Virus record (IMG/VR): IMGVR_UViG_3300025889_009691
Coordinates: 1-64,000 of that record
DNA from: a virus
Strand: one strand, 5' to 3'
DNA length: 64,000 bases
Numbering within the stretch: position 1 is the stretch's first letter; each line of letters begins with the position of its first letter. Made by a program: the position numbers and the translations under genes. The notes below the pieces were generated by a model, which did not search any database, was not told the origin of the DNA, and worked only from the letters and a program-made list of their open reading frames with translations. Shown here piece after piece: positions 17,732 to 54,400 of this stretch.

Positions 17732-17890
17732 ATGAAGAAATTTCTGTCCCGTTCTGTAGCTGCTCATGTTTGTATGGGCGCTGGCATTCTTTTTATCGGC
17801 TTTGGTATTAGTATACTAAGTTTGGGATGGGGGCTGGCAAGTGCTGGCCTTGCTTGTGGAATTTACGGGTACTTATTAGGGGCTGAATAA
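17732..17890 (+). CDS. small membrane protein upstream of portal (not in ORF track; 52 aa, MKKFLSRSVAAH...YLLGAE)
   Basis: TTGTCT-17-TAAAGT-6 nt-ATG; two hydrophobic segments; TAATG overlap with the portal start. Confidence 0.7.
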   Translation: MKKFLSRSVAAHVCMGAGILFIGFGISILSLGWGLASAGLACGIYGYLLGAE

Positions 17891-19530
17891 TGGCGTGGAA
17901 CTCTAGTTCAAATAAATCACTTCAATCAGGGGTTACAGAAAAAGCGGCACAGATTGCTGTGGGCGCTCCTGTTGCGTACAGTCCAACCATTCAGAACAAT
18001 AATCGTGGCTATCACGATGGCTGGGATATTGTTAAGACTTATAAAGAAGCTGTTGCTAAGGTAACTTGGGTTTATCGCTCAATTGACGTTATTGCGTCTA
18101 ACCAAGCTAGTCTTCCCATGATTCTTCGTAAGGACAATAATCCTTTTGGGGAGATTGTAACCGATAACCCTATTCTGAAGATTTTCAACAACACGGCGAA
18201 CGTTGGTGAGAATGCTTGGGCATTTCGTTATAGAATGAGTTCGCAGTTGATGATGAGCACGAGAGGAGTGTTTGTTGAGGTTGTGCGATCTAGAGATGGT
18301 ACGCCTATTGCTATGCATTTGTTGCCGCCTCAGAATACTTCTCCAATTCCTGATGTAAAGAACTTTGTTAAGGGGTTTGAAGTTCAGATCAATGCTATGG
18401 AGAAGCGGATCATTAAGCCTAAAGATGTGATTTGGATTCGCAGACCTCATCCGCTTGATCCATATTTGTCAATGACTCCGATGGAGGCTTCTGGTATTGC
18501 GATTGAGCAAGAGACTTTGGCTAAGCTGTACAATAGAAACTTCTTGATTAATGATGGGCGCCCCGGTGGATTGCTTGTGTTGCGTAGTGAGATTTCTGAC
18601 GAAGATAAAGATGAGTTGCGGTCTCGTTTCCGTGGGAATATTGGTAGAGCTGGTGCGGTCGGTGTAATTTCTGCAGATGATGGCGCTGATTTCGTGGATA
18701 CTGCTGCTAGTCCTCGTGATGCTGCGTATCAGCAGATGCGAACAATTACGAAGGAAGAAATTTTAGCGGCATTTGGTGTACCAGAGTCGATTATTGGTAA
18801 CTCTGCTAATCGAACGTTTTCTAATGCGATGGAGGAGGGCAAAGTCTTCTGGATGGAGACTATGACTCCTCATTTGAATCTTATTGCTCGTTCGTTTGAC
18901 GCTATTGATGAGTCATACTTTGTAGACTTTGATACGTCTGATGTTCCGATTTTGATTCTGTCGAAGCAGGAGCGAGAGAAGCACTACTTGTCAGAGTTCC
19001 AGCAGGGGCTGATTAGTACTAATGAGTATAGAGAGGCGGCAGCCCGTAAGAAGGTTGAGTCTGAGCTTGCTGATTCACTGCTGGCTAATCCCAACCTTAC
19101 TCCTGTTGCTAATACTGAAAAGCCTATGCAGCCTGAAGGACAGCAGGATCAAGGCATGGGTGCTGATGCTGGTATGGCTGGCATGGGTGCTGATGCTGGT
19201 ATGGCTGGCATGGGTGGCATGGGCGGTATGGACCCAATGGCTGGTGGTGCTCCTGCTGCTCCCGCTCCTCCTGATGGTGGGTTTGTTGAAGCTGGTGTTC
19301 CTCTTCAGCAGCAAGCTACCGCCGCTCTACAGCAGCAGGTCACAGAGTTTAGCCCAGAACAAGGCGCTTTTGTTCCGATGGGTGACGTTCAAGGAACCCA
19401 GCAGATTGAAGCCCCCGCAAGTGCAGTTCCTAGCGAACTAGACGATGAGGAGGACGAGGAGGGCCAGGAGGGTGAGAAGAGTCTCCCTTTAGAACGAAGA
19501 CTGGCGCTGCTGGAGGACCTTCTCTCTTAA
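17890..19530 (+). CDS. portal protein (HK97 family)
   Basis: WVYRSIDVIA, HLLPP, NFLINDGRPGG, EILAAFGVPES, STNEYR; low-complexity C-terminal linker. Confidence 0.92.
   Translation: MAWNSSSNKSLQSGVTEKAAQIAVGAPVAYSPTIQNNNRGYHDGWDIVKTYKEAVAKVTWVYRSIDVIASNQASLPMILRKDNNPFGEIVTDNPILKIFNNTANVGENAWAFRYRMSSQLMMSTRGVFVEVVRSRDGTPIAMHLLPPQNTSPIPDVKNFVKGFEVQINAMEKRIIKPKDVIWIRRPHPLDPYLSMTPMEASGIAIEQETLAKLYNRNFLINDGRPGGLLVLRSEISDEDKDELRSRFRGNIGRAGAVGVISADDGADFVDTAASPRDAAYQQMRTITKEEILAAFGVPESIIGNSANRTFSNAMEEGKVFWMETMTPHLNLIARSFDAIDESYFVDFDTSDVPILILSKQEREKHYLSEFQQGLISTNEYREAAARKKVESELADSLLANPNLTPVANTEKPMQPEGQQDQGMGADAGMAGMGADAGMAGMGGMGGMDPMAGGAPAAPAPPDGGFVEAGVPLQQQATAALQQQVTEFSPEQGAFVPMGDVQGTQQIEAPASAVPSELDDEEDEEGQEGEKSLPLERRLALLEDLLS
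19153..19216 (+). repeat. 27-bp tandem repeat (GMGADAGMA) in the portal linker
   Basis: GGCATGGGTGCTGATGCTGGTATGGCT twice plus a partial third copy. Confidence 0.9.
19485..19491 (+). other. candidate -1 ribosomal frameshift heptamer C_CCT_TTA (portal to MuF-like domain)
   Basis: In-frame X_XXY_YYZ; the -1 frame is open 19476-20306; GGAGG lies 13 nt upstream. Confidence 0.7.
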
Positions 19531-20306
19531 ACGCTTCCGACTGGAAGACTAAAACTTTATACACAGTCAGCTCTTTAGAAGACAGACTAAACTCAGAACT
19601 TGATAAAGTTTTTGACGATCAAGAGCAGGCTGTTCTAGATGAGTTAGATAGCGATGCTGTACAAGCTGCAATTGCTAGTGGCTCTGTTGCTTTAATTCTG
19701 TCTGCAATTCCTGTGGCGTTACTTACACCGTCAACTGTTGCGTTGTTAGCTTCTATGGCAGCCACGTATCGTAAAGCGGTTGAAGACAATATTGAAGAAG
19801 GATATGGCGCTCCTGTCTCTGAGCAAGTGTCAGAAGCAGCGACATCTGAACATTTAGCAGCAGTCAATAATTTTAACACAACCACGCAAGAAGAAGTTGC
19901 GGCTGCTTTAGTTACTGCTGCACAATTGACTGATGAGAATGATGGCGACGTTGATATCGCTTTAAAGATTGCTTTAGCCTATTCTTTGATAAAAGCTATT
20001 TTCAATAAACTCCGAACAAAGCGTCGAAAGTTGATTGTTGACGCTGCTGTTTTGGGTCCGTACAATCAAGGCTTGTATGATTCTGCAGTTGCGGAAGAGC
20101 AAAGAACGGGTCAAATTGTACAAAAACAGTGGGTGTCTTTAATGGATGAGCGGGTTAGGTCTGCTCATAGGCAGTTACATGGTGAAAAAGTTGCTGTTGG
20201 TACGCCGTTTTTTGTGAATGGTGTATCTATTCGATTCCCGAAAGACCCTTTGGCTCCGCCCGGTTTGACGATCAATTGTCGTTGTATTCTGCGCTTCAGC
20301 AGGTAG
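19485..20306 (+). CDS. MuF/gp7-like head morphogenesis domain, probably made as a portal fusion
   Basis: KQWVSLMDERVRSAHRQLHG...PF...FPKDP...INCRC; no good independent start or SD. Confidence 0.85.
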   Translation, partial: PFRTKTGAAGGPSLLNASDWKTKTLYTVSSLEDRLNSELDKVFDDQEQAVLDELDSDAVQAAIASGSVALILSAIPVALLTPSTVALLASMAATYRKAVEDNIEEGYGAPVSEQVSEAATSEHLAAVNNFNTTTQEEVAAALVTAAQLTDENDGDVDIALKIALAYSLIKAIFNKLRTKRRKLIVDAAVLGPYNQGLYDSAVAEEQRTGQIVQKQWVSLMDERVRSAHRQLHGEKVAVGTPFFVNGVSIRFPKDPLAPPGLTINCRCILRFSR

Positions 20307-20397
20307 TTTATATATAAGTATTTATATATAGTAGCGGCTGGGCGCCCCCTTGGGTCTGTACAATATCACATAGGAGACTAGTCCTCAGAGGAGAGTT

Positions 20398-21960
20398 ATG
20401 ACTGTTGCAGAACTAAATGACACCGAGCACGACACCCAATTCAAGGCTATTTCAGGCCAGATTGGTATCGACAAGGCTCAAGGCATCGTTGAAGCGTTTG
20501 TGTCAGGTATTGGAAATAAAGATTCTGTTGGCGACATCGTTATCGCAGGTGCGTTTAACGGGTCTCTGAAGCGACGCAAACCACGGGTTGTTTGGGGCCA
20601 CGATTGGAATCAGCCAATTGGTAAAGTTCTAGAGATTTACGAAGTCCCTAAGACTGATCCACGCCTGCCTGAAAAGATGAAGCAGGCTGGAGTTGGTGGC
20701 TTGTTTGCTAAGGTTCAGTTCAACCTTAATACTGAACGTGGTCGTGAAGCGTTTGCAAATGTTGCATTTTACGGCAATGAGCAAGAGTGGTCAATTGGTT
20801 ACAAGACAATTACTGCAGATTTTGATGCAGTTAAGCAAGCTAACATTCTCAAAGAGGTAGAGTTGTACGAAATTTCTCCTGTTCTGCATGGAGCGAATCA
20901 GTTGACCGCAACGATTTCTGTTAAAGATGATGAAAAGGGCAAGGCATCCAAAGGCTATTACGTTGAGGATGAAGATAAAGACGGCCCTGCTAGTACTATG
21001 GATGCAATGTCAGAGCGTTTGGGGCGAATGCTGTCTCAGGCTTTGCGTAAGCCCGTTCAGATTATTGAAATGGATGGAAATAACGTTGTATTCCAAACAG
21101 GCGAAGACATGACATGGAGCGCCACGATTTCTGTTGAAAATGGTCAGGTTCAGGTTGGTCGGCCTACACGTGTAAAGCCCACAACAAGCTACACCCCGGT
21201 AGGGGAGGAGGCACCCCCTTCAATGATGATTAAAGATACTGACGAAAAGAATGCTGAAGAGCCTGCGGGCGTGAGAGATGCTGATGATGAGCAGGGTTCG
21301 TGGGCTACCCCGGATATTGCTCTTGCTTGGGCTAAGACCTTTGGTTGTTCTGGTTATCACTCACATGGCGGCGGTTACATGCCGTGTGAAACGCATGAAG
21401 AGTATTTAGAAGCACTTAAAAAGTTTGATGGTAACGCTAACATCAACTCGCATAACAACTACCTTGCTGGGGTTGAGGTTGAAGAAGCAAAGGCTGCAGG
21501 GTGTTCTTGTGGGACCGAAGAAAAGGGCCATATGATGCCTAGCAAGAAGCCTGAGTATCTTAAGGACCCCATGGCTCTGCTACTTATGGCTTACAATGAG
21601 ATGCTGAAGCTTCGTGGTGCCGGTGAGTTGCGTGAGGCCACGTTGACTTTGATCGGTGCGGTCGAAGACTTCTTGACTGAAGCCCCGATGTCTCGTCCTG
21701 GCGAGCAGGGCGAGAAGGTGACTTCAGGCTTTGTTGTCCATGTCAAGTGTTCAGAGAAAGAAGCACTGGCTGTTAACGGCGCTATGTCTGGCCTGCCTGT
21801 GTTCTCGTTTAAGTCAGAAGATGGCGTTGATGTCCACTTTACGACAGAACTTGCAGAAGAAGAACTGATGGAAAAAGTCGCTGTGTCGCTTGCGGGATTA
21901 GCGTTTGAGCCTGAGGTAACAGTAACAAGACCGATTGACACCACCGAGGGTGTTCAGTAA
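20398..21960 (+). CDS. prohead protease (HK97 family) with long C-terminal extension
   Basis: DSVGD...GAF, WGHDWNQPIG, WSIGY, LYEISPVLHGAN. Confidence 0.92.
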   Translation: MTVAELNDTEHDTQFKAISGQIGIDKAQGIVEAFVSGIGNKDSVGDIVIAGAFNGSLKRRKPRVVWGHDWNQPIGKVLEIYEVPKTDPRLPEKMKQAGVGGLFAKVQFNLNTERGREAFANVAFYGNEQEWSIGYKTITADFDAVKQANILKEVELYEISPVLHGANQLTATISVKDDEKGKASKGYYVEDEDKDGPASTMDAMSERLGRMLSQALRKPVQIIEMDGNNVVFQTGEDMTWSATISVENGQVQVGRPTRVKPTTSYTPVGEEAPPSMMIKDTDEKNAEEPAGVRDADDEQGSWATPDIALAWAKTFGCSGYHSHGGGYMPCETHEEYLEALKKFDGNANINSHNNYLAGVEVEEAKAAGCSCGTEEKGHMMPSKKPEYLKDPMALLLMAYNEMLKLRGAGELREATLTLIGAVEDFLTEAPMSRPGEQGEKVTSGFVVHVKCSEKEALAVNGAMSGLPVFSFKSEDGVDVHFTTELAEEELMEKVAVSLAGLAFEPEVTVTRPIDTTEGVQ

Positions 21961-21990
21961 GATATTCTCTATAAGGATACAGGAGTAAAA

Positions 21991-23817
21991 ATGAGTGATA
22001 ACCTTAATGAAGACCTTCAGAAGATGGAAGCTTTGAGCGAAGTCATCGATTCTGGGGAAAGCATGTCTGCCGCAGAGAAGGCTATGCATGATATGAAGAA
22101 AAACGCACCGTCTGTGTTTATGACTGACATTCGTTTCAAGGAGTCAATGGAAGTTGGCGATTTGCTTAGCGAAGAAGCTTTCATGTCTCTTGATGCTGAT
22201 GAGCAGAAGGGCTATGAGATGGTTCAGGTCATGGACGAGAAGAGCAAGGAGCCTATGGGCTGGGTGTTCCGTTTTAAGTCTGATGAAGATGATGAGGACG
22301 ATGCTGAAGACATTGTTGAAGAGGTCGTTGAAGATGCGGTTGAAGAATCCGTGGAAGAAAAGTCAGATGCTGATCCTATCTCAGAAAAGGCCGCTGCACT
22401 CATGTCGCAGATGCGTGCCCCTGATGATGAAAAGCCTTCAATGTTCCTTACCGATAGTCGTTTCAAGGAAATGATGGACGCTGGCGAGCTTGTTTCATCA
22501 GAAGACTATGACGTTTTAGACGAAGACGCTAAAGAAGCATTTGAGGCTGTTGATGTTTATGAAGAGGGCACCGGCAAGGGTTATGGTCGGCGCTATCGTC
22601 GTCGCAGCCCCCTTGAGTTGACAGCAATGCGTAAGGGTCAGGGTATGGATGAAAAGGCTGAAGACGGCATGGAAGACATGTTTGATTCGGAAGCTGAAGC
22701 TCTTGAGCGTGCGGCGGCGCTAGGTTGCCAGGGCGTTCATCGTGCAGGTGAAAAGTACATGCCTTGTGCAACCCACGATGATTGGATGAAGCTTAGCAAG
22801 CCTGCTGAGGCACCGGCTCCTACTCCGGCCCCTGCCCCCGCTCCGGCTGCGCCTGCTCCTGCTCCTGCTCCTGCTCCGGCTGCTGCCCCTGGTGGCATGA
22901 TGAAGTCAGAAGAAGAGTTCCTCTGTGGTTTCCAGCGCAAGTCAGTTGAGCAGCCTTGCGAGTTCTGCACAGGCGGCTGTGCTCCTGAAGATGGCCTTCC
23001 AGGGCTTGCTGACATTGAAAGTCAGGTCAAGTCAGCCTACGAGGGTTCTGAAATTATTGGCTCAGGCTACTCAGCCGGTGACGACGTATTCGTTGTCGAT
23101 GTCAAGCGGGCTGACGGTTCCTTTATTGAAGTGTTCCTGACCGGCGACGGCGAGGAGCTTGGTTGGCTGCGTTTGGATCAGAGCGCTATTGAAGGCAAGT
23201 CCGCTGAAGCTATTGAGATTGTTTCTAAGTCTGATGCTGAGGCTACGGCACGTGACGCTATTAGCGAGATGGGAATCAAGGCTGAGGTCATGAGCGTTAC
23301 TGTTGACATCTTCGCAGATGAAGATGTGTACGTGGTTGAGCTTGATGCTGAAGAGAAGAGCTACGACGTGTTCGTTGCTGCTGATGGCAAGGTGCTCGGC
23401 TATGATGAGTACGATTATGACGCTGAGGGTTCATATGAGCTTTCTGAAGAGGAAGAGATTAAGGCTATTGAGGCTGAACTTGAGATCAAGCGGATGTACT
23501 CTCGTGAGCAGCGTGAGGCGATGGCTGAGTCCGGTGAGGCTCTGCCTGATGGTTCGTTCCCGATTGCTGATGAGGCTGACCTAAGCAACGCTATCCAAGC
23601 GGTGGGTCGTGCGGCTGATCAAGAAGCTGCTAAGGCGCACATTATGAAGCGTGCTAAGGAACTGAAGTTGGAAGATATGATTCCGGCTGATTTTGCTAGC
23701 GGCGGCTCGCCTGCTCCTGCAGCCCCTGATGCTGATGCTGAAGAGAAGGTGCTAGACGAAGATATTCTTAAGGCGATGGAAGAGTTCAACAGCCTGTTGG
23801 AAGACGATTCTATCTGA
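21991..23817 (+). CDS. acidic multidomain head-module protein (internal repeat, Cys/His module, 2 PepSY-like domains, ALPDGSFPI domain)
   Basis: Motifs visible in the translation; own promoter TTGACA-17-TAAGAT and SD AGGAG. Confidence 0.7.
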   Translation: MSDNLNEDLQKMEALSEVIDSGESMSAAEKAMHDMKKNAPSVFMTDIRFKESMEVGDLLSEEAFMSLDADEQKGYEMVQVMDEKSKEPMGWVFRFKSDEDDEDDAEDIVEEVVEDAVEESVEEKSDADPISEKAAALMSQMRAPDDEKPSMFLTDSRFKEMMDAGELVSSEDYDVLDEDAKEAFEAVDVYEEGTGKGYGRRYRRRSPLELTAMRKGQGMDEKAEDGMEDMFDSEAEALERAAALGCQGVHRAGEKYMPCATHDDWMKLSKPAEAPAPTPAPAPAPAAPAPAPAPAPAAAPGGMMKSEEEFLCGFQRKSVEQPCEFCTGGCAPEDGLPGLADIESQVKSAYEGSEIIGSGYSAGDDVFVVDVKRADGSFIEVFLTGDGEELGWLRLDQSAIEGKSAEAIEIVSKSDAEATARDAISEMGIKAEVMSVTVDIFADEDVYVVELDAEEKSYDVFVAADGKVLGYDEYDYDAEGSYELSEEEEIKAIEAELEIKRMYSREQREAMAESGEALPDGSFPIADEADLSNAIQAVGRAADQEAAKAHIMKRAKELKLEDMIPADFASGGSPAPAAPDADAEEKVLDEDILKAMEEFNSLLEDDSI

Positions 23818-49308: not shown

Positions 49309-49758
49309 ATGGCTAAAGCAACTCAGAGGCAGATTGTCGCAGAGATTTCAGCGGTTAGAGATGTTCCCGGCCATATTCCGGGTCCGTCTTTCGCCACGTA
49401 CTTTGCTACAGTCAGCGGCGGCGAAATCAGCGCTGCAGTAGAGAAGGTGTATGACGGGGGATCGACGTTCCCTGAGGTTCTTTGTGCTCCTTCAGAAATT
49501 GGTGACATCACTCTCAGCAGGTTCTATAATCCTGATGACGATGCTGATAGATTGAACAACCTTCGTCAGTTGGTCGGTTCAACCTATTATGATGTCAAGA
49601 TTTACACGCTTAATTGTGATCTGGCTGAGCCTGGGTCTGAGCGTGTGTATCCGAAGTGCTTGCTTGTTGGGCTTACTGAGCCTGATGGTGATGCTTCTTC
49701 AGGTGCTCCTGCTTCTTTCTCGCTCACGTTCTCAGTGAGCCGGGTAAGCGCTATCTGA
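49309..49758 (+). CDS. tail tube protein
   Basis: Directly after sheath; FATVSGGE...ITLSR; strong SD; followed by a terminator. Confidence 0.8.
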   Translation: MAKATQRQIVAEISAVRDVPGHIPGPSFATYFATVSGGEISAAVEKVYDGGSTFPEVLCAPSEIGDITLSRFYNPDDDADRLNNLRQLVGSTYYDVKIYTLNCDLAEPGSERVYPKCLLVGLTEPDGDASSGAPASFSLTFSVSRVSAI

Positions 49759-49787
49759 TCCTCGCATAAACATAATTGAATAAAGAT

Positions 49788-49820
49788 TGGGCGCTGCTTC
49801 GGTAGCGCCTTTTCTTTTTT
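49788..49820 (+). terminator. intrinsic terminator after the tail tube gene
   Basis: GGGCGCTGC-TTCG-GTAGCGCCT followed by a T-rich tail. Confidence 0.88.
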
Positions 49821-49890
49821 ACATTGCTTGCGTGGGAGTGTAGATTTTTATATGCTATTGTTGATATGTATTGTCTACATGAGGTTAATC

Positions 49891-50628
49891 ATGAGTATTC
49901 CAACAGTTAGTAGTCGGGTCAATGTTAAAGACCTGCACCCTAAGTTTAAGGCCCGTCTGGAAGCGTTCTTTGCTGATCCACGTATTGCGGGCAAGGTTGC
50001 TGTTGTGTCTGGTGTTCGCACCTACCAGCAGCAGAAGTACCTGTATGATGGCTATAAGAGCCGTAAGCCCGGTTTCAATCTGGCAGCTAACCCGGACCGT
50101 GTAAACAGCGCCGGGTTTCAGGGTTCGTATCATATGAGCCAGCCGAAGTTTGATGGTTACGGTTATGCGGTTGACTTCCGTATCATCAAGCGGGGTTCTA
50201 TCTCTACCACGCAGGTGAATAAGATTGCTGAAGAGTATGGTATTCGTAAGACCGTGGCTTCGGAGTGGTGGCATCATCAGCCGTGTCGTGTGAGCGGTTC
50301 GAAGATGGATTGGTTCCCTGTTAAGGGCGATATCAAGGTTCCGAAGGCTGCGTCGGTTAAGTCTGAGCAGGCTCAGGCGCTTGAGTTTATTGCGGCGTGT
50401 TTTAAGACTGTTGTGCGTCGTGGCGATAAGGGGCCGGTTGTTGAGTTCCTTCAGAAGCTTCTGGATAAGAACGGTTACAAGCTGACTTCTCGTCCTCGTA
50501 AGAATTCTGGCGTTGACGGCGACTTCGGTGCTAAGACGTTGAAGGCTGTGAAGCAGTTCCAGCGTGATGAGGGTCTTGCTGCGGACGGTGTTGTTGGTCC
50601 CAAGACTTGGGCAGCGCTTGCTGACTAA
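49891..50628 (+). CDS. endolysin-like M15-type peptidase with C-terminal peptidoglycan-binding domain
   Basis: SGVRTYQQQ..LY, SYH...AVD, EWWH; DGDFGAKT..AVKQFQ...GL.ADGVVGPKTW. Confidence 0.85.
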   Translation: MSIPTVSSRVNVKDLHPKFKARLEAFFADPRIAGKVAVVSGVRTYQQQKYLYDGYKSRKPGFNLAANPDRVNSAGFQGSYHMSQPKFDGYGYAVDFRIIKRGSISTTQVNKIAEEYGIRKTVASEWWHHQPCRVSGSKMDWFPVKGDIKVPKAASVKSEQAQALEFIAACFKTVVRRGDKGPVVEFLQKLLDKNGYKLTSRPRKNSGVDGDFGAKTLKAVKQFQRDEGLAADGVVGPKTWAALAD

Positions 50629-50676
50629 TGTGTCTTGCTAGTTGACTTGATTCTAGGAAAGGAATAGTATATAAAC

Positions 50677-51189
50677 ATGAGCACAGAAAATGAAATTATT
50701 GAGGTTGCAGGTTCCGCACCTGCTGCCGCACAGAAAAAGGCCAGCAAGGTTACTTTGCTGGATCAGTTGAAGACGGAGATTGCTAAAGAAGTTACCCGTC
50801 CTGAGATTGAGATTCCTATTCCTGAGCGTAAGGGCGTTACTGTCCGTTACTCTCCTAACATTACAAACGACCAGTTGAAGGCTTGGCGTCGCAACTCTAC
50901 TAACCGCAAGACTGAAGAACTTGACTCAATTAAGTTCTCTTGTTATGTGGTTGGGCAGACTGTGACTGGCATTTTCTTCAACAACGAGCTTGTTCTGGAT
51001 GATGACGGGAATGCGATTACGTTTGCATCGCCGGTCGTTATGGAGATGACGGACACTGATCGTCCTTTGCCTGATGCTATCAGGGCGTTCTTTGCTGTTG
51101 ATCCACACCTTGAGAGCACCGCTCTTAAGATTCTTGACCATGCTGGTTATGGTGACGACGTGGACATGGAGGACCCTACGAAGGGCTAG
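50677..51189 (+). CDS. tail assembly chaperone
   Basis: Position before the tape measure gene; ends ...EDPTKG. Confidence 0.78.
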   Translation: MSTENEIIEVAGSAPAAAQKKASKVTLLDQLKTEIAKEVTRPEIEIPIPERKGVTVRYSPNITNDQLKAWRRNSTNRKTEELDSIKFSCYVVGQTVTGIFFNNELVLDDDGNAITFASPVVMEMTDTDRPLPDAIRAFFAVDPHLESTALKILDHAGYGDDVDMEDPTKG

Positions 51190-51380
51190 TTGATAGCCTT
51201 TCGGAAGATGTCCGAATCAAATCAGCGGCCCGTCTAGGTGAAACGTTCCACGTTGACCCTATCCAGTTATTAGATTCCACGAATGATGAGTGGTTGATTC
51301 GTATGGCTTGTGCGCAGGCATTGGCTAGGGATCAGGCGGAAAGAGAAAGACAAAGAAAGGCCATGCAAGGTGGCTACTAA
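51174..51380 (+). CDS. tail assembly chaperone -1 frameshift extension (gpGT-like)
   Basis: -1 frame from GAC_CCT_ACG reads PYEGLVDSLSEDVRIKSAARLGETFHVDP...QGGY*; no SD-led start. Confidence 0.7.
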   Translation, partial: PYEGLVDSLSEDVRIKSAARLGETFHVDPIQLLDSTNDEWLIRMACAQALARDQAERERQRKAMQGGY

Positions 51381-51441
51381 GCACCGGGGATTTCTGTAGA
51401 ATATCTATAGGAATTCCCGGTTCTTCTTTTTAGGGGCAGTT

Positions 51442-54400
51442 ATGGCTGAAGCTAGAGAACGTGTTGTAATTGAGGTTGAGATCGATGCTGATATTAGCGG
51501 CGATCTTGCTGCTATTGAGCGTAGGTTGAAGGCGTTAGAGGATCGTCAGAACGCTTTGGGTCGTGCGACTCGTGGCGCTGCTAACGCTAACCGAGATTTT
51601 GATCGCACAAACCGTCGTCTAAATAAAACAGCTGATTCAAATACACGCAAGTTTGACCGGTTCCGTAAGGTAATGGACGGGTTTAAGAACGGCCTTATGA
51701 AGGTTACCGGAGTCTTAAAGAAATTTTTGATGACTTTTTCTAAGTTGTCGTTTATTGCGATTGCTGCTGAAATTGCTATTTTTTCGGCTGCGTTGTTAGC
51801 TGTTAAAGGCTTGTTAGTTAGTGGTAGGGTTGCTGTTAAAGGTTACCAGATAGCCCTTAAAGGTTTGTCAGCGGCGGCTGCTGGTGTTGCTACTGGTTTG
51901 GCGGTGGCGGCTGCGGCTATTAGAGAATTTCAGGAAGTGCAGCTTACGCCGTTCTTTGGTGGTGGTCAGCAAGGTGCTCGTGGTGCCCGTCAGTTAAGTC
52001 GTAGTTTTACTTCGCAGACTCGTTCGTTGTTGGGTGAGTCTACTGGGGCTGTTGCTGGTTCGTTTGCGCAGGCGGGCATTCGCCGTGGTAATGTTTTGGC
52101 TAACCAGTTGTTTAACTTGTCTGGCGGTGATGCTAAGGCGGTGCAGTCGTTGGCTGCGGCTTTTGCGTCTGCACAGAAGTCTGGCGATACGGCTGGCCTT
52201 ATTACGGCGTTGCAGGGTGCTAGGGGTTTTCGTGCTGAGTCTATTGCTGAGGGTGCGTCTTTAAGTAGTATTATTGGTACTGTTTCTAGAGGTGGTGCCA
52301 CGGCTGATGCGTTCCAGGGTTTGGGTGATGCTTTTGCGGGGACGTTTATTGGTACGTTGAAGGCTGAAGCCGAGTCGTTTAAAAGTATTTTTGCAAACAT
52401 TGGTGAGCCGTTACTGAAGCCGTTCCGTGATTCGTTTTTGCAGATTAGTCAGATTATTAAAAACGATGTGTTGGGTATTGCTCAGATTATGCGGGAGTTT
52501 GGCCCGGATTCGATGGCTCCTGCGTTGGTTGGTTTTACGGATGCGGTAAGTGAGTTTATTCGTTCTAACATTGTGCAGAATGTTAGCGATATTGCGGGTG
52601 CTGCTGATAAGTTTATTAACTTCTTTAGGTCTGTTGGTGATTTCTTTACTGGTTTTGGTGATTGGCTTCGTAGTTATGAGGGTGCTGCTGATGTTGTTAT
52701 GGACATGCTTAGGGCAATGTTTAGTAGTTCTGAGGGTGGGCTGTTTCGGTCTTTCTCAAATTTGCTTGAAGAGAACAGAGAGGCGTTTATTGCCTTTGGT
52801 GATGCCTTAGGTAATGTGATAAATGCATTTAAGCAGGGCTTTGCGCAAGGAAATAGTGGTTTCTTTAATGCTCTTCCGAGGCTGGTTGATACGTTGAATG
52901 TGGTGGCTACGAGTGTGTTGCCTAACTTGTTTGAAGTGTTTGGTGCTATGACGCCGCTGTTTGAGCGGTTCCCTGAGATTATTCGTGATATTACTGAAAC
53001 GCTTGGGCCTATGTTGGTGCGTATTTTTGAGGCGATGGAACCTATTTTTGATAAGTTACCTGATGCGTTCAAGGGATTGTTGAAGGTGTTGTCTGCTCTT
53101 GAGCCTCTTATCATGTTGTTGATTAAGGCTGTTGATTTGTTGGCTTCTGCTCTTCTCGCTATTCCGGGTGGGGATATGGTGTTGGGTCTTGGCGGCTTGT
53201 ATGCGTTTGGTAAGGGCAAGTCTGCCCTGAATGCTAGAAAAAATCCTGCCGCTGCAGCCCGTCGTGCCAATCGTGGTCCTAGCTTTTTCTCTCGTGGAGT
53301 TAGTGCCTTAGATGACACTATGTATAACAGAACTGGGCCTGTCGCTAACCGTTATCTAAATATGCGCACAAATCCTAATGGCATGTTTTCTGCGGGTACA
53401 AGCAAAGCTGCGTTTGCTTCAAAATTGTTAACTCCACTCGCTGGCGCTTTAGGTGCTAAAAACTTTTATGACGCATATCAGGCGGGTGTGGCAGAAGGGG
53501 GCGGAGGACGAAGCTCTAACGCCTTCGGCCTTGATCGTGGTCTTAGCATGGATGGTCTGAGGGGTATTTCTAATTACATGGAGAATGATCCTATTGGTGC
53601 TGGTTTTTCTGCTGCTGGTATGGCTGCCACTGCGGCTTTGTTTGGCGCAAATCCGGCTTTGGCTGCAGTGATAGGCGGCGGTGTGACTACTTATGGTGCC
53701 GGTAAGCAAGCCCTGAGTCAAGGTTCGTCTATGGGAAACACACTTACAGGCATTGCAGGGTCCACGGTTATGGGTGCCGGTTTAGGGCAAATGCTGATTC
53801 CGATTCCCGGTGTAGGCGCATTAATAGGTGCGGGTGCGGGTGCTATTGCTGGCACTATTGCGTTTGGCGGCACGCATGTGCTTCAATCGATGGGCTTCTT
53901 GGGCGGCACAAAAGGTGATAGGCAAAGACAACGAAACGAAGATTTCGCAGCAGGCATGTCAACAAACCTGTCATCGATTGCGGCTAACGGCGGAACCGAC
54001 GCACAGTTCATGGAAGCACAATCGTTGTTACAAAGCGCTGAAGCAGCCATGATGGCAGGCATGACCGCAGAAGGTTTCACTGAAGGCGACACGAACGCTA
54101 TGAGAACGTTCCTTATGCAAGCTCAAAGTTCTGGGCTGTTAGCGGGCACAGAGTTCGCTAATATGGACTTTACGCAAATGCATTTAGATGACTTTATTCA
54201 GAATGAACTTGGTGGCGTAATGGATTCGTTAACAAAGACGATTGAATCTGAAACTGCTCGTCGCCAACGTGAGGAAGAAGAAAGACTCCGCAAGATCAAT
54301 ATTGCTGTTGGTGACTTGTCTGAAACGTTAGAGGTTTCTCGTGGCGAAATTGAACGGTTTGTTTCAGAGTTTGGTATTGCGTTGGATACAGCAAACTTGG

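Follow-up and report, generated by a model that had tools for sequence, protein, structure and literature searches.

A probable programmed −1 ribosomal frameshift at the portal–MuF junction of a group of uncultured phages

How is a phage head protein produced when its reading frame offers no plausible start codon? This question is raised by the junction of the portal gene and a MuF-like gene in the IMG/VR virus record IMGVR_UViG_3300025889_009691, of which positions 1 to 64,000 were analyzed (in the following, the window); the record comprises 90 kilobases (kb) and its completeness is estimated at about 61%. Portal-associated MuF/gp7 proteins are widespread minor head proteins, some with toxin domains, and little is understood of what keeps their copy number low and directs them to the procapsid. 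An initial annotation, made from the sequence of the window, had proposed that a programmed −1 frameshift fuses the portal to the MuF-like protein. We compared the junction with homologous loci from IMG/VR, from a metagenome collection and from cultured phages. The proposal is well supported, as heptamer, phase and gene layout are present in every homologous locus with MuF in the −1 frame, and sequence and conservation together make it very probable that a programmed −1 ribosomal frameshift at C_CCT_TTA joins portal to MuF.

Anatomy of the junction

The junction comprises the following features, which can be read directly from the sequence:

17890–19530, plus strand: portal gene in the 0 frame, 546 amino acids (aa) (open reading frame (ORF) list, translation, PF04860 with 2.7e-49, phrog_2662/phrog_12)
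19467–19491, plus strand: putative recoding island of 25 nucleotides (nt), GGAGGGTGAGAAGAGTCTCCCTTTA, with the family consensus GAG GGT RRG AAG AGY NNC CCT TTN
19467–19472, plus strand: Shine–Dalgarno (SD)-like GGAGGG, 12–13 nt upstream of the heptamer, with the conserved core GAGGG invariant in 44/44 distinct loci
19473–19475, plus strand: TGA closing the −1 frame just ahead of the shift site, a stop codon in all 44 loci
19485–19491, plus strand: putative slippery heptamer C_CCT_TTA (P-site CCU to CCC, A-site UUA to UUU), phase verified in the sequence
19492–19530, plus strand: short 0-frame tail of the unshifted portal (ERRLALLEDLLS) and stop codon TAA
19491–20306, plus strand: MuF/gp7-like head protein in the −1 frame after the shift, 271 codons plus TAG (translation, PF04233, phrog_2468, phrog_2662)
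19542–19712, plus strand: conserved N-terminal MuF segment (W-x-x-K-x-LY-x-V-x-SLE...DDQE...), located ahead of the first canonical start (protein conservation in 44 loci, tblastn)
19713–19715, plus strand: GTG, first canonical start in the MuF frame, codon 80, lacking an SD sequence (ORF list, SD check)

In a profile search, the portal ORF matched the phage portal family PF04860 over profile positions 2–319 of 321 with 168.5 bits (cutoff 39.1). Its C-terminus ahead of the shift site is a long low-complexity linker rich in Gly, Met, Ala, Pro and Gln. At 19150–19330, an internally repeated Gly/Met/Ala stretch (GMGADAGMAGMGADAGMAGMGGMGGM) is followed by a Pro/Ala/Gln-rich one; the linker length differs between relatives, and the whole stretch is presumably flexible. 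The 0-frame codons AGT CTC CCT TTA GAA place the heptamer in the X_XXY_YYZ phase, 12 sense codons before the TAA at 19528–19530, and sequence and translation agree here with the initial annotation. This heptamer is the sole phased one of the portal ORF and begins 9 nt after the TGA of the −1 frame.

The −1 frame is open from 19476, directly after this TGA, and free of stop codons until TAG at 20304–20306. That it encodes a MuF/gp7 domain, as had been read from its translation, was borne out by a match to PF04233 (Phage_Mu_F) with 41.5 bits (cutoff 29.6), located at residues 181–272 of the frame opening at 19476 (nt 20016–20291). A second match, to the 'head morphogenesis' family phrog_2468 (3.7e-22), covers residues 31–275 and thus begins well before the first start codon. 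The annotated absence of a start in the first ~79 codons and of an SD sequence also held: the first start is the GTG at 19713, which is not plausible as the start of MuF, and from the stop codon opening the −1 frame to the conserved Trp (W23, 19542–19544) the window contains no ATG, GTG, TTG, CTG or ATH codon. Genes of the phage otherwise use SD sequences of the AGGAG/GAGG type. In the profile phrog_2662 ('portal', 717 positions), the portal ORF aligns with positions 26–499 and the MuF ORF with positions 491–707. Since one profile covers both in this order, the two ORFs are colinear with known single-chain portal-MuF proteins.

Taken as a single sequence, the window makes only a modest case for the heptamer. 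Phased heptamers occur at 0.0037 per codon in its long plus-strand ORFs, which gives an expectation of about 0.07 in the 18-codon overlap, and the heptamer is therefore not beyond chance in the window alone. In these ORFs there are 64 phased heptamers, and with the exception of the one at 19485–19491 none has a −1 frame that continues for more than 90 nt after the ORF ends.

Conservation of the shift site in relatives

A search of IMG/VR with the portal yielded 80 loci with 57–98% identity, which were classed solely by the tblastn frames of portal and MuF. In about 60 of them, representing 33 distinct junctions, MuF lies in the −1 frame with an overlap of 22–58 nt, and all of these carry C_CCT_TTN at the same offset, 9 nt past the −1 stop, at portal identities down to 65% and MuF identities down to 39%. 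With added loci, 44 distinct 2.5-kb loci encoding 36 distinct portals keep the −1 layout and the family consensus given above; their heptamers read CCCTTTT (31), CCCTTTA (12) or CCCTTTC (1). The comparison of heptamer and frame in homologous contigs, which the initial annotation had named as the way to check its claim, thus came out in its favor, because 33 distinct junctions, 44 distinct 2.5-kb loci and 24 further metagenome junctions have retained both. This conservation among relatives, which is observed directly, is far beyond chance.

The nucleotides of the island are more constrained than its surroundings. From −18 to +6 relative to the heptamer anchor, the mean entropy is 0.27 bit compared with about 1.6 in the flanks, and at third codon positions it is 0.27 compared with 1.7. 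A regular expression for the motif served to anchor the loci, so that the informative part of these values is the contrast between island and flanks. Synonymous choices are frozen, with GAG in 44/44, GGT in 43/44 and CCT in 44/44 loci and AAG for 41/41 of the Lys codons at that position, compared with a background use of 36–52% for the same codons in the same genes. The amino acid specified by the codon preceding the heptamer is L, V, D, A, H or R, yet the third base of this codon, which is X1 of the heptamer, is C in all 44 loci. Likewise, the RRG codon is GAG, AGG or AAG (E, R or K in the 0 frame) and reads TGA, TAG or TAA in the −1 frame of all 44 loci, never TGG. The invariant third-base C and the ever-present stop suggest that the nucleotides are under constraint here, not the peptide. 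The 0-frame tail behind the heptamer, by comparison, has 1–13 codons in relatives and is unconserved.

For the SD-like block, the initial annotation had pointed to GGAGG 13 nt upstream of the heptamer. The position (19467–19471) is correct, and the exact motif had to be revised: the leading G is not invariant, and the core conserved in relatives is GAGGG(T). Its spacing lies within the 6–17 nt range used for stimulatory SD sequences in PMC4066793.

The motif is linked to MuF far outside the initial set of loci, again by direct observation. A 23-nt version had 56 exact matches in 2.9 million IMG/VR contigs, every one of them (56/56) in phase at the end of a portal homolog, and MuF follows in the −1 frame in 54/56, namely in all contigs that are long enough. 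In the much larger metagenome collection, 42 of 54 exact matches are located in phase at portal ends; for 40 of these, MuF lies in the −1 frame. These matches added the 24 new distinct junctions. The other 12 matches (among L287–L340) have no portal or MuF homology nearby, a number close to a rough chance estimate for that database.

A frame break of this kind could also stem from a sequencing or assembly indel, or from a recently broken, pseudogenized portal-MuF gene. Outgroups and cultured relatives do carry in-frame fusions, and L054, a contig from within the clade, has the in-frame layout too. However, the same break at the same place is found in the 44 distinct IMG/VR loci and the 24 metagenome junctions, which come from many samples, and both ORFs are intact and conserved as proteins. 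In addition, four other metagenome assemblies share the junction of the window: all four match it over the first 107 nt, and a one-base difference is present in two of them within the 60 nt beyond the portal stop. The presence in these assemblies together with the conservation excludes a sequencing indel, and an origin by either kind of damage is extremely improbable.

Transcriptional slippage, i.e. stuttering of RNA polymerase, would join the two frames as well. It usually needs a long homopolymer of about 7 or more A or T, and the longest runs at the site are T3–T4 or C3, far below such lengths. Moreover, the conserved feature is a phased X_XXY_YYZ heptamer, and a polymerase is indifferent to phase. 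Some phage genes do rely on transcriptional slippage (see the review PMC5009743), and it would give a −1 fusion just as ribosomal slippage does; we nevertheless consider it highly unlikely here.

Gene layouts, ancestry and independent initiation

In relatives, the −1 frame past the heptamer consists of a short variable linker followed by the conserved block W-x-x-K-x-LY-x-V-x-SLE...DDQE, and the tblastn alignments of MuF begin at query residue 1–23 in almost all loci. A separate production of MuF would have to rely on an internal or non-canonical start (GTG 19713 or a near-cognate codon) or on termination and reinitiation, and the island would then be a conserved peptide, e.g. a protease site. 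In the window and in most relatives with the −1 layout, no ATG, GTG, TTG, CTG or ATH codon precedes the conserved Trp, and this lack is a strong argument against independent initiation. The first canonical start lies 17–77 codons after the heptamer at a position that is not conserved and without an SD sequence; its use would delete conserved protein. That the motif goes together with a MuF frame devoid of a start codon is directly observed.

Other layouts occur among the relatives within the same portal clade and serve as natural controls. In one sub-lineage (L041–L047; L042:5480–5520, also L041, L043 and L045–L047), the MuF frame is +1 and includes an ATG of its own, which overlaps the triple stop TGA TGA TAA at the end of the portal and precedes the conserved Trp by about 10 codons; the motif is absent. 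L058, L060 and L066–L072 have no MuF behind the portal, and they likewise lack the motif. In the sub-lineage of L058 (L058:5400–5700), an AT-rich intergenic region follows the portal, and then the next head gene. One locus nested in the frameshift clade (L054:4805–4811, identical to L168) has portal and MuF in one frame and keeps GAGGGT...C_CCT_TTA, with a −1 frame that closes after 7 codons. This layout is due either to a reversion or to an indel in the assembly. The initial annotation had stated that homologs with an independent start would speak against it. A few such homologs were found (L041–L047), all of them lacking the motif, and most homologs have no start-like codon.

In a maximum-likelihood tree of 63 distinct portal N-domains with midpoint root, all 36 loci with the −1 layout fall into one clade (Shimodaira–Hasegawa-like approximate likelihood ratio test (SH-aLRT) 100), which has a stem length of 0.3 and also contains the +1 pair, the six MuF-less loci and L054; 18 in-frame fusions lie outside. 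The simplest history that these sequences suggest is an ancestral in-frame fusion, a single origin of the split gene with frameshift, and three later changes. A nucleotide search of cultured phages with the region 17800–21000 of the window gave no match, and relatives were found at the protein level only, at about 40%. The closest ones, Cantare and DalanDe (~40% portal identity), have in-frame portal-MuF genes (Brevibacterium phage Cantare gp7, 793 aa; Gordonia phage DalanDe gp18, 923 aa), in line with the statement of the initial annotation that such fusions occur in phages. A gene of Streptomyces phage Gilgamesh is annotated as 'portal and MuF-like fusion protein', and portal-MuF fusions have been described for Microbacterium phages of the clusters EA/EB (PMC7302621).

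Two further cases concern slippery sites at the same junction. The homologous position in the linker of an in-frame outgroup clade (~754 aa; L080:4037–4043, also L139–L144 and L146) is occupied by a phased C_CCT_TT[C/T], which is the only phased heptamer of the L080 ORF, and the −1 frame of this clade closes after 2–5 codons. Either a shift would yield a MuF-less portal there, in a reversed layout resembling dnaX, or the P-F codons were the raw material of the signal in the split genes. The sequences point weakly to the reversed layout, as few of them are independent and the P-F dipeptide is conserved as a peptide too. The second case is Bacteroides phage p00 (Hankyphage, BK010646; L341 13305–13257, minus strand), whose portal ends with a phased T_TTT_TTC followed after 6 nt by a GCCCCG/CGGGGC hairpin of −14.2 kcal/mol; the −1 frame encodes MuF, for which an ATG overlapping the stop of the portal (ATGGTGA) has been annotated. 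This unrelated cassette at the portal/MuF junction looks like a textbook example.

Several observations weigh against a frameshift, or against details of it. GGAGG is not rare, with 49 occurrences on the plus strand of the window, so that it is conservation and spacing alone that argue for the role of the SD-like block. The window heptamer ends in A (A-site UUA), whereas the forms with the highest efficiency in Escherichia coli are the Y-ending U_UU.Y ones (PMC4066793). No conserved downstream hairpin or pseudoknot was found when the 60 nt after the heptamer were folded for 37 distinct junctions (mean z = −0.38); the folding energies were weak (−4 to −17 kcal/mol), with no common hairpin. Three points also favor the separate production of MuF described above. 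Part of the island conservation could stem from a conserved peptide (EGxKS-x-P-F/L), as the linkers of in-frame fusions also contain P-F and motifs resembling x-K|S; in the L005–7 clade, a TTG lies three codons ahead of the conserved Trp; and the sister sub-lineage L041–L047 expresses MuF from an ATG of its own overlapping the portal stop, apparently as a separate protein, so that a covalent portal-MuF linkage is not obligatory. A constraint on the peptide, however, fails to explain the invariant synonymous positions or the fixed third-base C in a variable codon, and the motif has been lost precisely where an independent ATG exists. Together with the missing start codons, this makes separate production unlikely, and a programmed −1 frameshift is the reading that we develop in the following.

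Predicted products, head assembly and known recoding systems

We infer the following course of translation. Most ribosomes would finish the portal at 19530 and release the 546-aa protein. Some would slip back by one base on C_CCU_UUA (19485–19491), where the tRNAs on CCU and UUA would re-pair with CCC and UUU, and would then read the −1 frame to 20306, giving a portal-linker-MuF protein of about 805 aa (534 + 271). The predicted junction reads ...EGEKSLP[L/F]RTKTGAAGG..., with SLP[L/F]R as junction peptide together with TK/TGAAGGPSLLNASDWK. The GGAGGG located 12–13 nt upstream may pair with the anti-SD in the tail of the 16S ribosomal RNA (rRNA) of the elongating ribosome, as in dnaX and IS911, and judged by its conservation it is likely the stimulator of the shift. 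In E. coli, heptamers of the type H_HH.U_UU.Y, which include the majority form of this family, C_CCU_UUU, are among the most efficient; the window form C_CC.U_UU.A allows more than 0.1% shift without stimulators and is under-represented in genes (PMC4066793). The efficiency in the host of the phage may differ from that in E. coli. C_CCU_UUU is also listed as a slippery sequence in papers on West Nile virus frameshifting. As a conserved downstream structure is missing, the efficiency is probably modest, and by analogy the site is probably an SD-stimulated −1 frameshift of the dnaX/IS911 type. Two candidate structures were considered and discarded: a small CUUCC/GGAAG stem at 19533–19546 is not conserved, and a hairpin of the SD-like block with CCUCCC fails in its pairing by inspection.

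The possible benefit lies in head assembly. C-termini of portal proteins point to the capsid interior, and gp7 of phage SPP1 binds the portal and is packaged in few copies per capsid. Fusion subunits that are co-assembled into the portal dodecamer would bring a few MuF copies into the procapsid; given the inward C-termini and the long linker, MuF could thereby reach the interior in sub-stoichiometric amounts without any recognition between portal and MuF. We further infer that only a fraction of ribosomes shifts and that recoding may fix the stoichiometry, as the initial annotation had suggested. The translational ratio would then set the number of MuF copies per dodecamer, the portal itself would deliver MuF, and the covalent linkage would make portal binding unnecessary for targeting.

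The MuF gene is located in the head module between the portal gene and the following gene:

20398–21960, plus strand: prohead protease (S78, HK97 gp4-like), 520 aa, with a DUF3721 module (PF04586 with 2.1e-13, phrog_80)

This adjacent S78 protease may cut at the conserved EG(E/K/R)K|S that directly precedes the shift site and thereby set MuF free; a release by maturation cleavage, in parallel to Gag-Pol, is plausible from the sequences. In-frame relatives have a similar motif just before the MuF N-terminus, namely phi-x-K followed by S, G, T or A. The Lys of EGxK|S is replaced by Gln in the L005–7 clade, and for this reason the protease site is kept as a conjecture only. As a side observation, the protease ORF and the next ORF (608 aa, no PHROG match) within 20398–23817 each bear a DUF3721 module (PF12518) beside their main parts. 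In the tail region, no phased X_XXY_YYZ heptamer was found in the ORFs between the tube-like and the tape-measure gene (49309–51442). The usual tail-chaperone frameshift is therefore absent in this phage, uses another motif or is located elsewhere.

A broader idea is tentative and, in our view, rather doubtful: the slippery site could be an ancient switch that governs, in either layout, the ratio between portals with and portals lacking MuF, and tailed phages would have evolved recoding several times to dose a portal-tethered internal head protein that is later released by the prohead protease. In the split layout a shift adds MuF under this idea; in the in-frame fusions of the L080/L139–146 clade and in L054, with a phased C_CCT_TTN at the homologous place of the linker and a −1 frame closing after 2–7 codons, it would drop MuF. 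If this were true, the switch together with the Hankyphage cassette would represent a Gag-Pol-like packaging logic not yet described for phages.

In the literature, we found no portal-to-MuF frameshift, only in-frame portal-MuF fusions and frameshifts in tail-chaperone and capsid genes. The PRFect paper (PMC10885494) does not mention portals, and neither do the available portions of the recoding review PMC5009743. The mechanism is thus of a known kind, a programmed −1 frameshift with an upstream SD-like element, and it is the gene pair and the logic of virion assembly that we did not find described; the pair would be a new entry among the few recoding events listed for structural genes of phages. 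There is also a practical consequence: gene callers will annotate MuF as a truncated 197-aa ORF or miss its N-terminus, throughout a group of uncultured, mostly marine phages. Furthermore, in-frame fusion, split gene with frameshift, separate gene with its own ATG and loss of MuF form a natural series for comparison.

Among known systems, dnaX of E. coli (tau/gamma) and elements of the IS911/IS3 type are closest with regard to the signal, as they likewise combine a phased X_XXY_YYZ heptamer with an internal SD-like element about 10–14 nt upstream (PMC4066793, PMC5009743) and obtain two products at a set ratio from one mRNA, the same logic as proposed here. The window differs in its heptamer (C_CCU_UUN instead of A_AAA_AAG), in the lack of a conserved downstream hairpin or pseudoknot and in the genes concerned, which encode phage head proteins. 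The shifted product is the longer one in the window and in IS911, unlike in dnaX.

The −1 shift of the tail chaperone G/GT in lambda and most long-tailed phages (Xu, Hendrix & Duda 2004, as cited in PMC7302621) is comparable in position: a conserved site lies near the end of a structural-module gene, a minority of chains is extended into a downstream ORF lacking a start, and the position is kept although the proteins have diverged. The lambda site belongs to the tail and is not known to have a stimulator, whereas portal and MuF belong to the head and their site has a conserved SD-like block.

The in-frame portal-MuF proteins of actinophages (Microbacterium EA/EB, PMC7302621; Gilgamesh; Cantare gp7; DalanDe gp18) contain the same two domains in the same order in one polypeptide. 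There, every subunit bears MuF unless it is processed; in the window the domains are in separate frames, and a fusion would arise only from shifting ribosomes.

Retroviral and totiviral Gag-Pol (PMC5009743) provides the parallel for delivery, as a −1 shift fuses a minor component to an assembling structural protein, which determines both its ratio and its incorporation, and a release by protease is proposed here as well. Gag-Pol belongs to eukaryotic RNA viruses, uses pseudoknots or hairpins as stimulators and carries enzymatic cargo, and cleavage in the phage of the window is only conjectured. Finally, −1 extensions of capsid proteins in phages T7 (10A/10B) and T3, Lactobacillus phage A2 and Listeria phages A118/A500 (PMC5009743) likewise arise by a shift close to the end of a head gene and lead to two C-terminal variants that are incorporated together. 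These extensions add short or Ig-like decorations, whereas the shift proposed for the window would attach a whole separate assembly protein to the portal.

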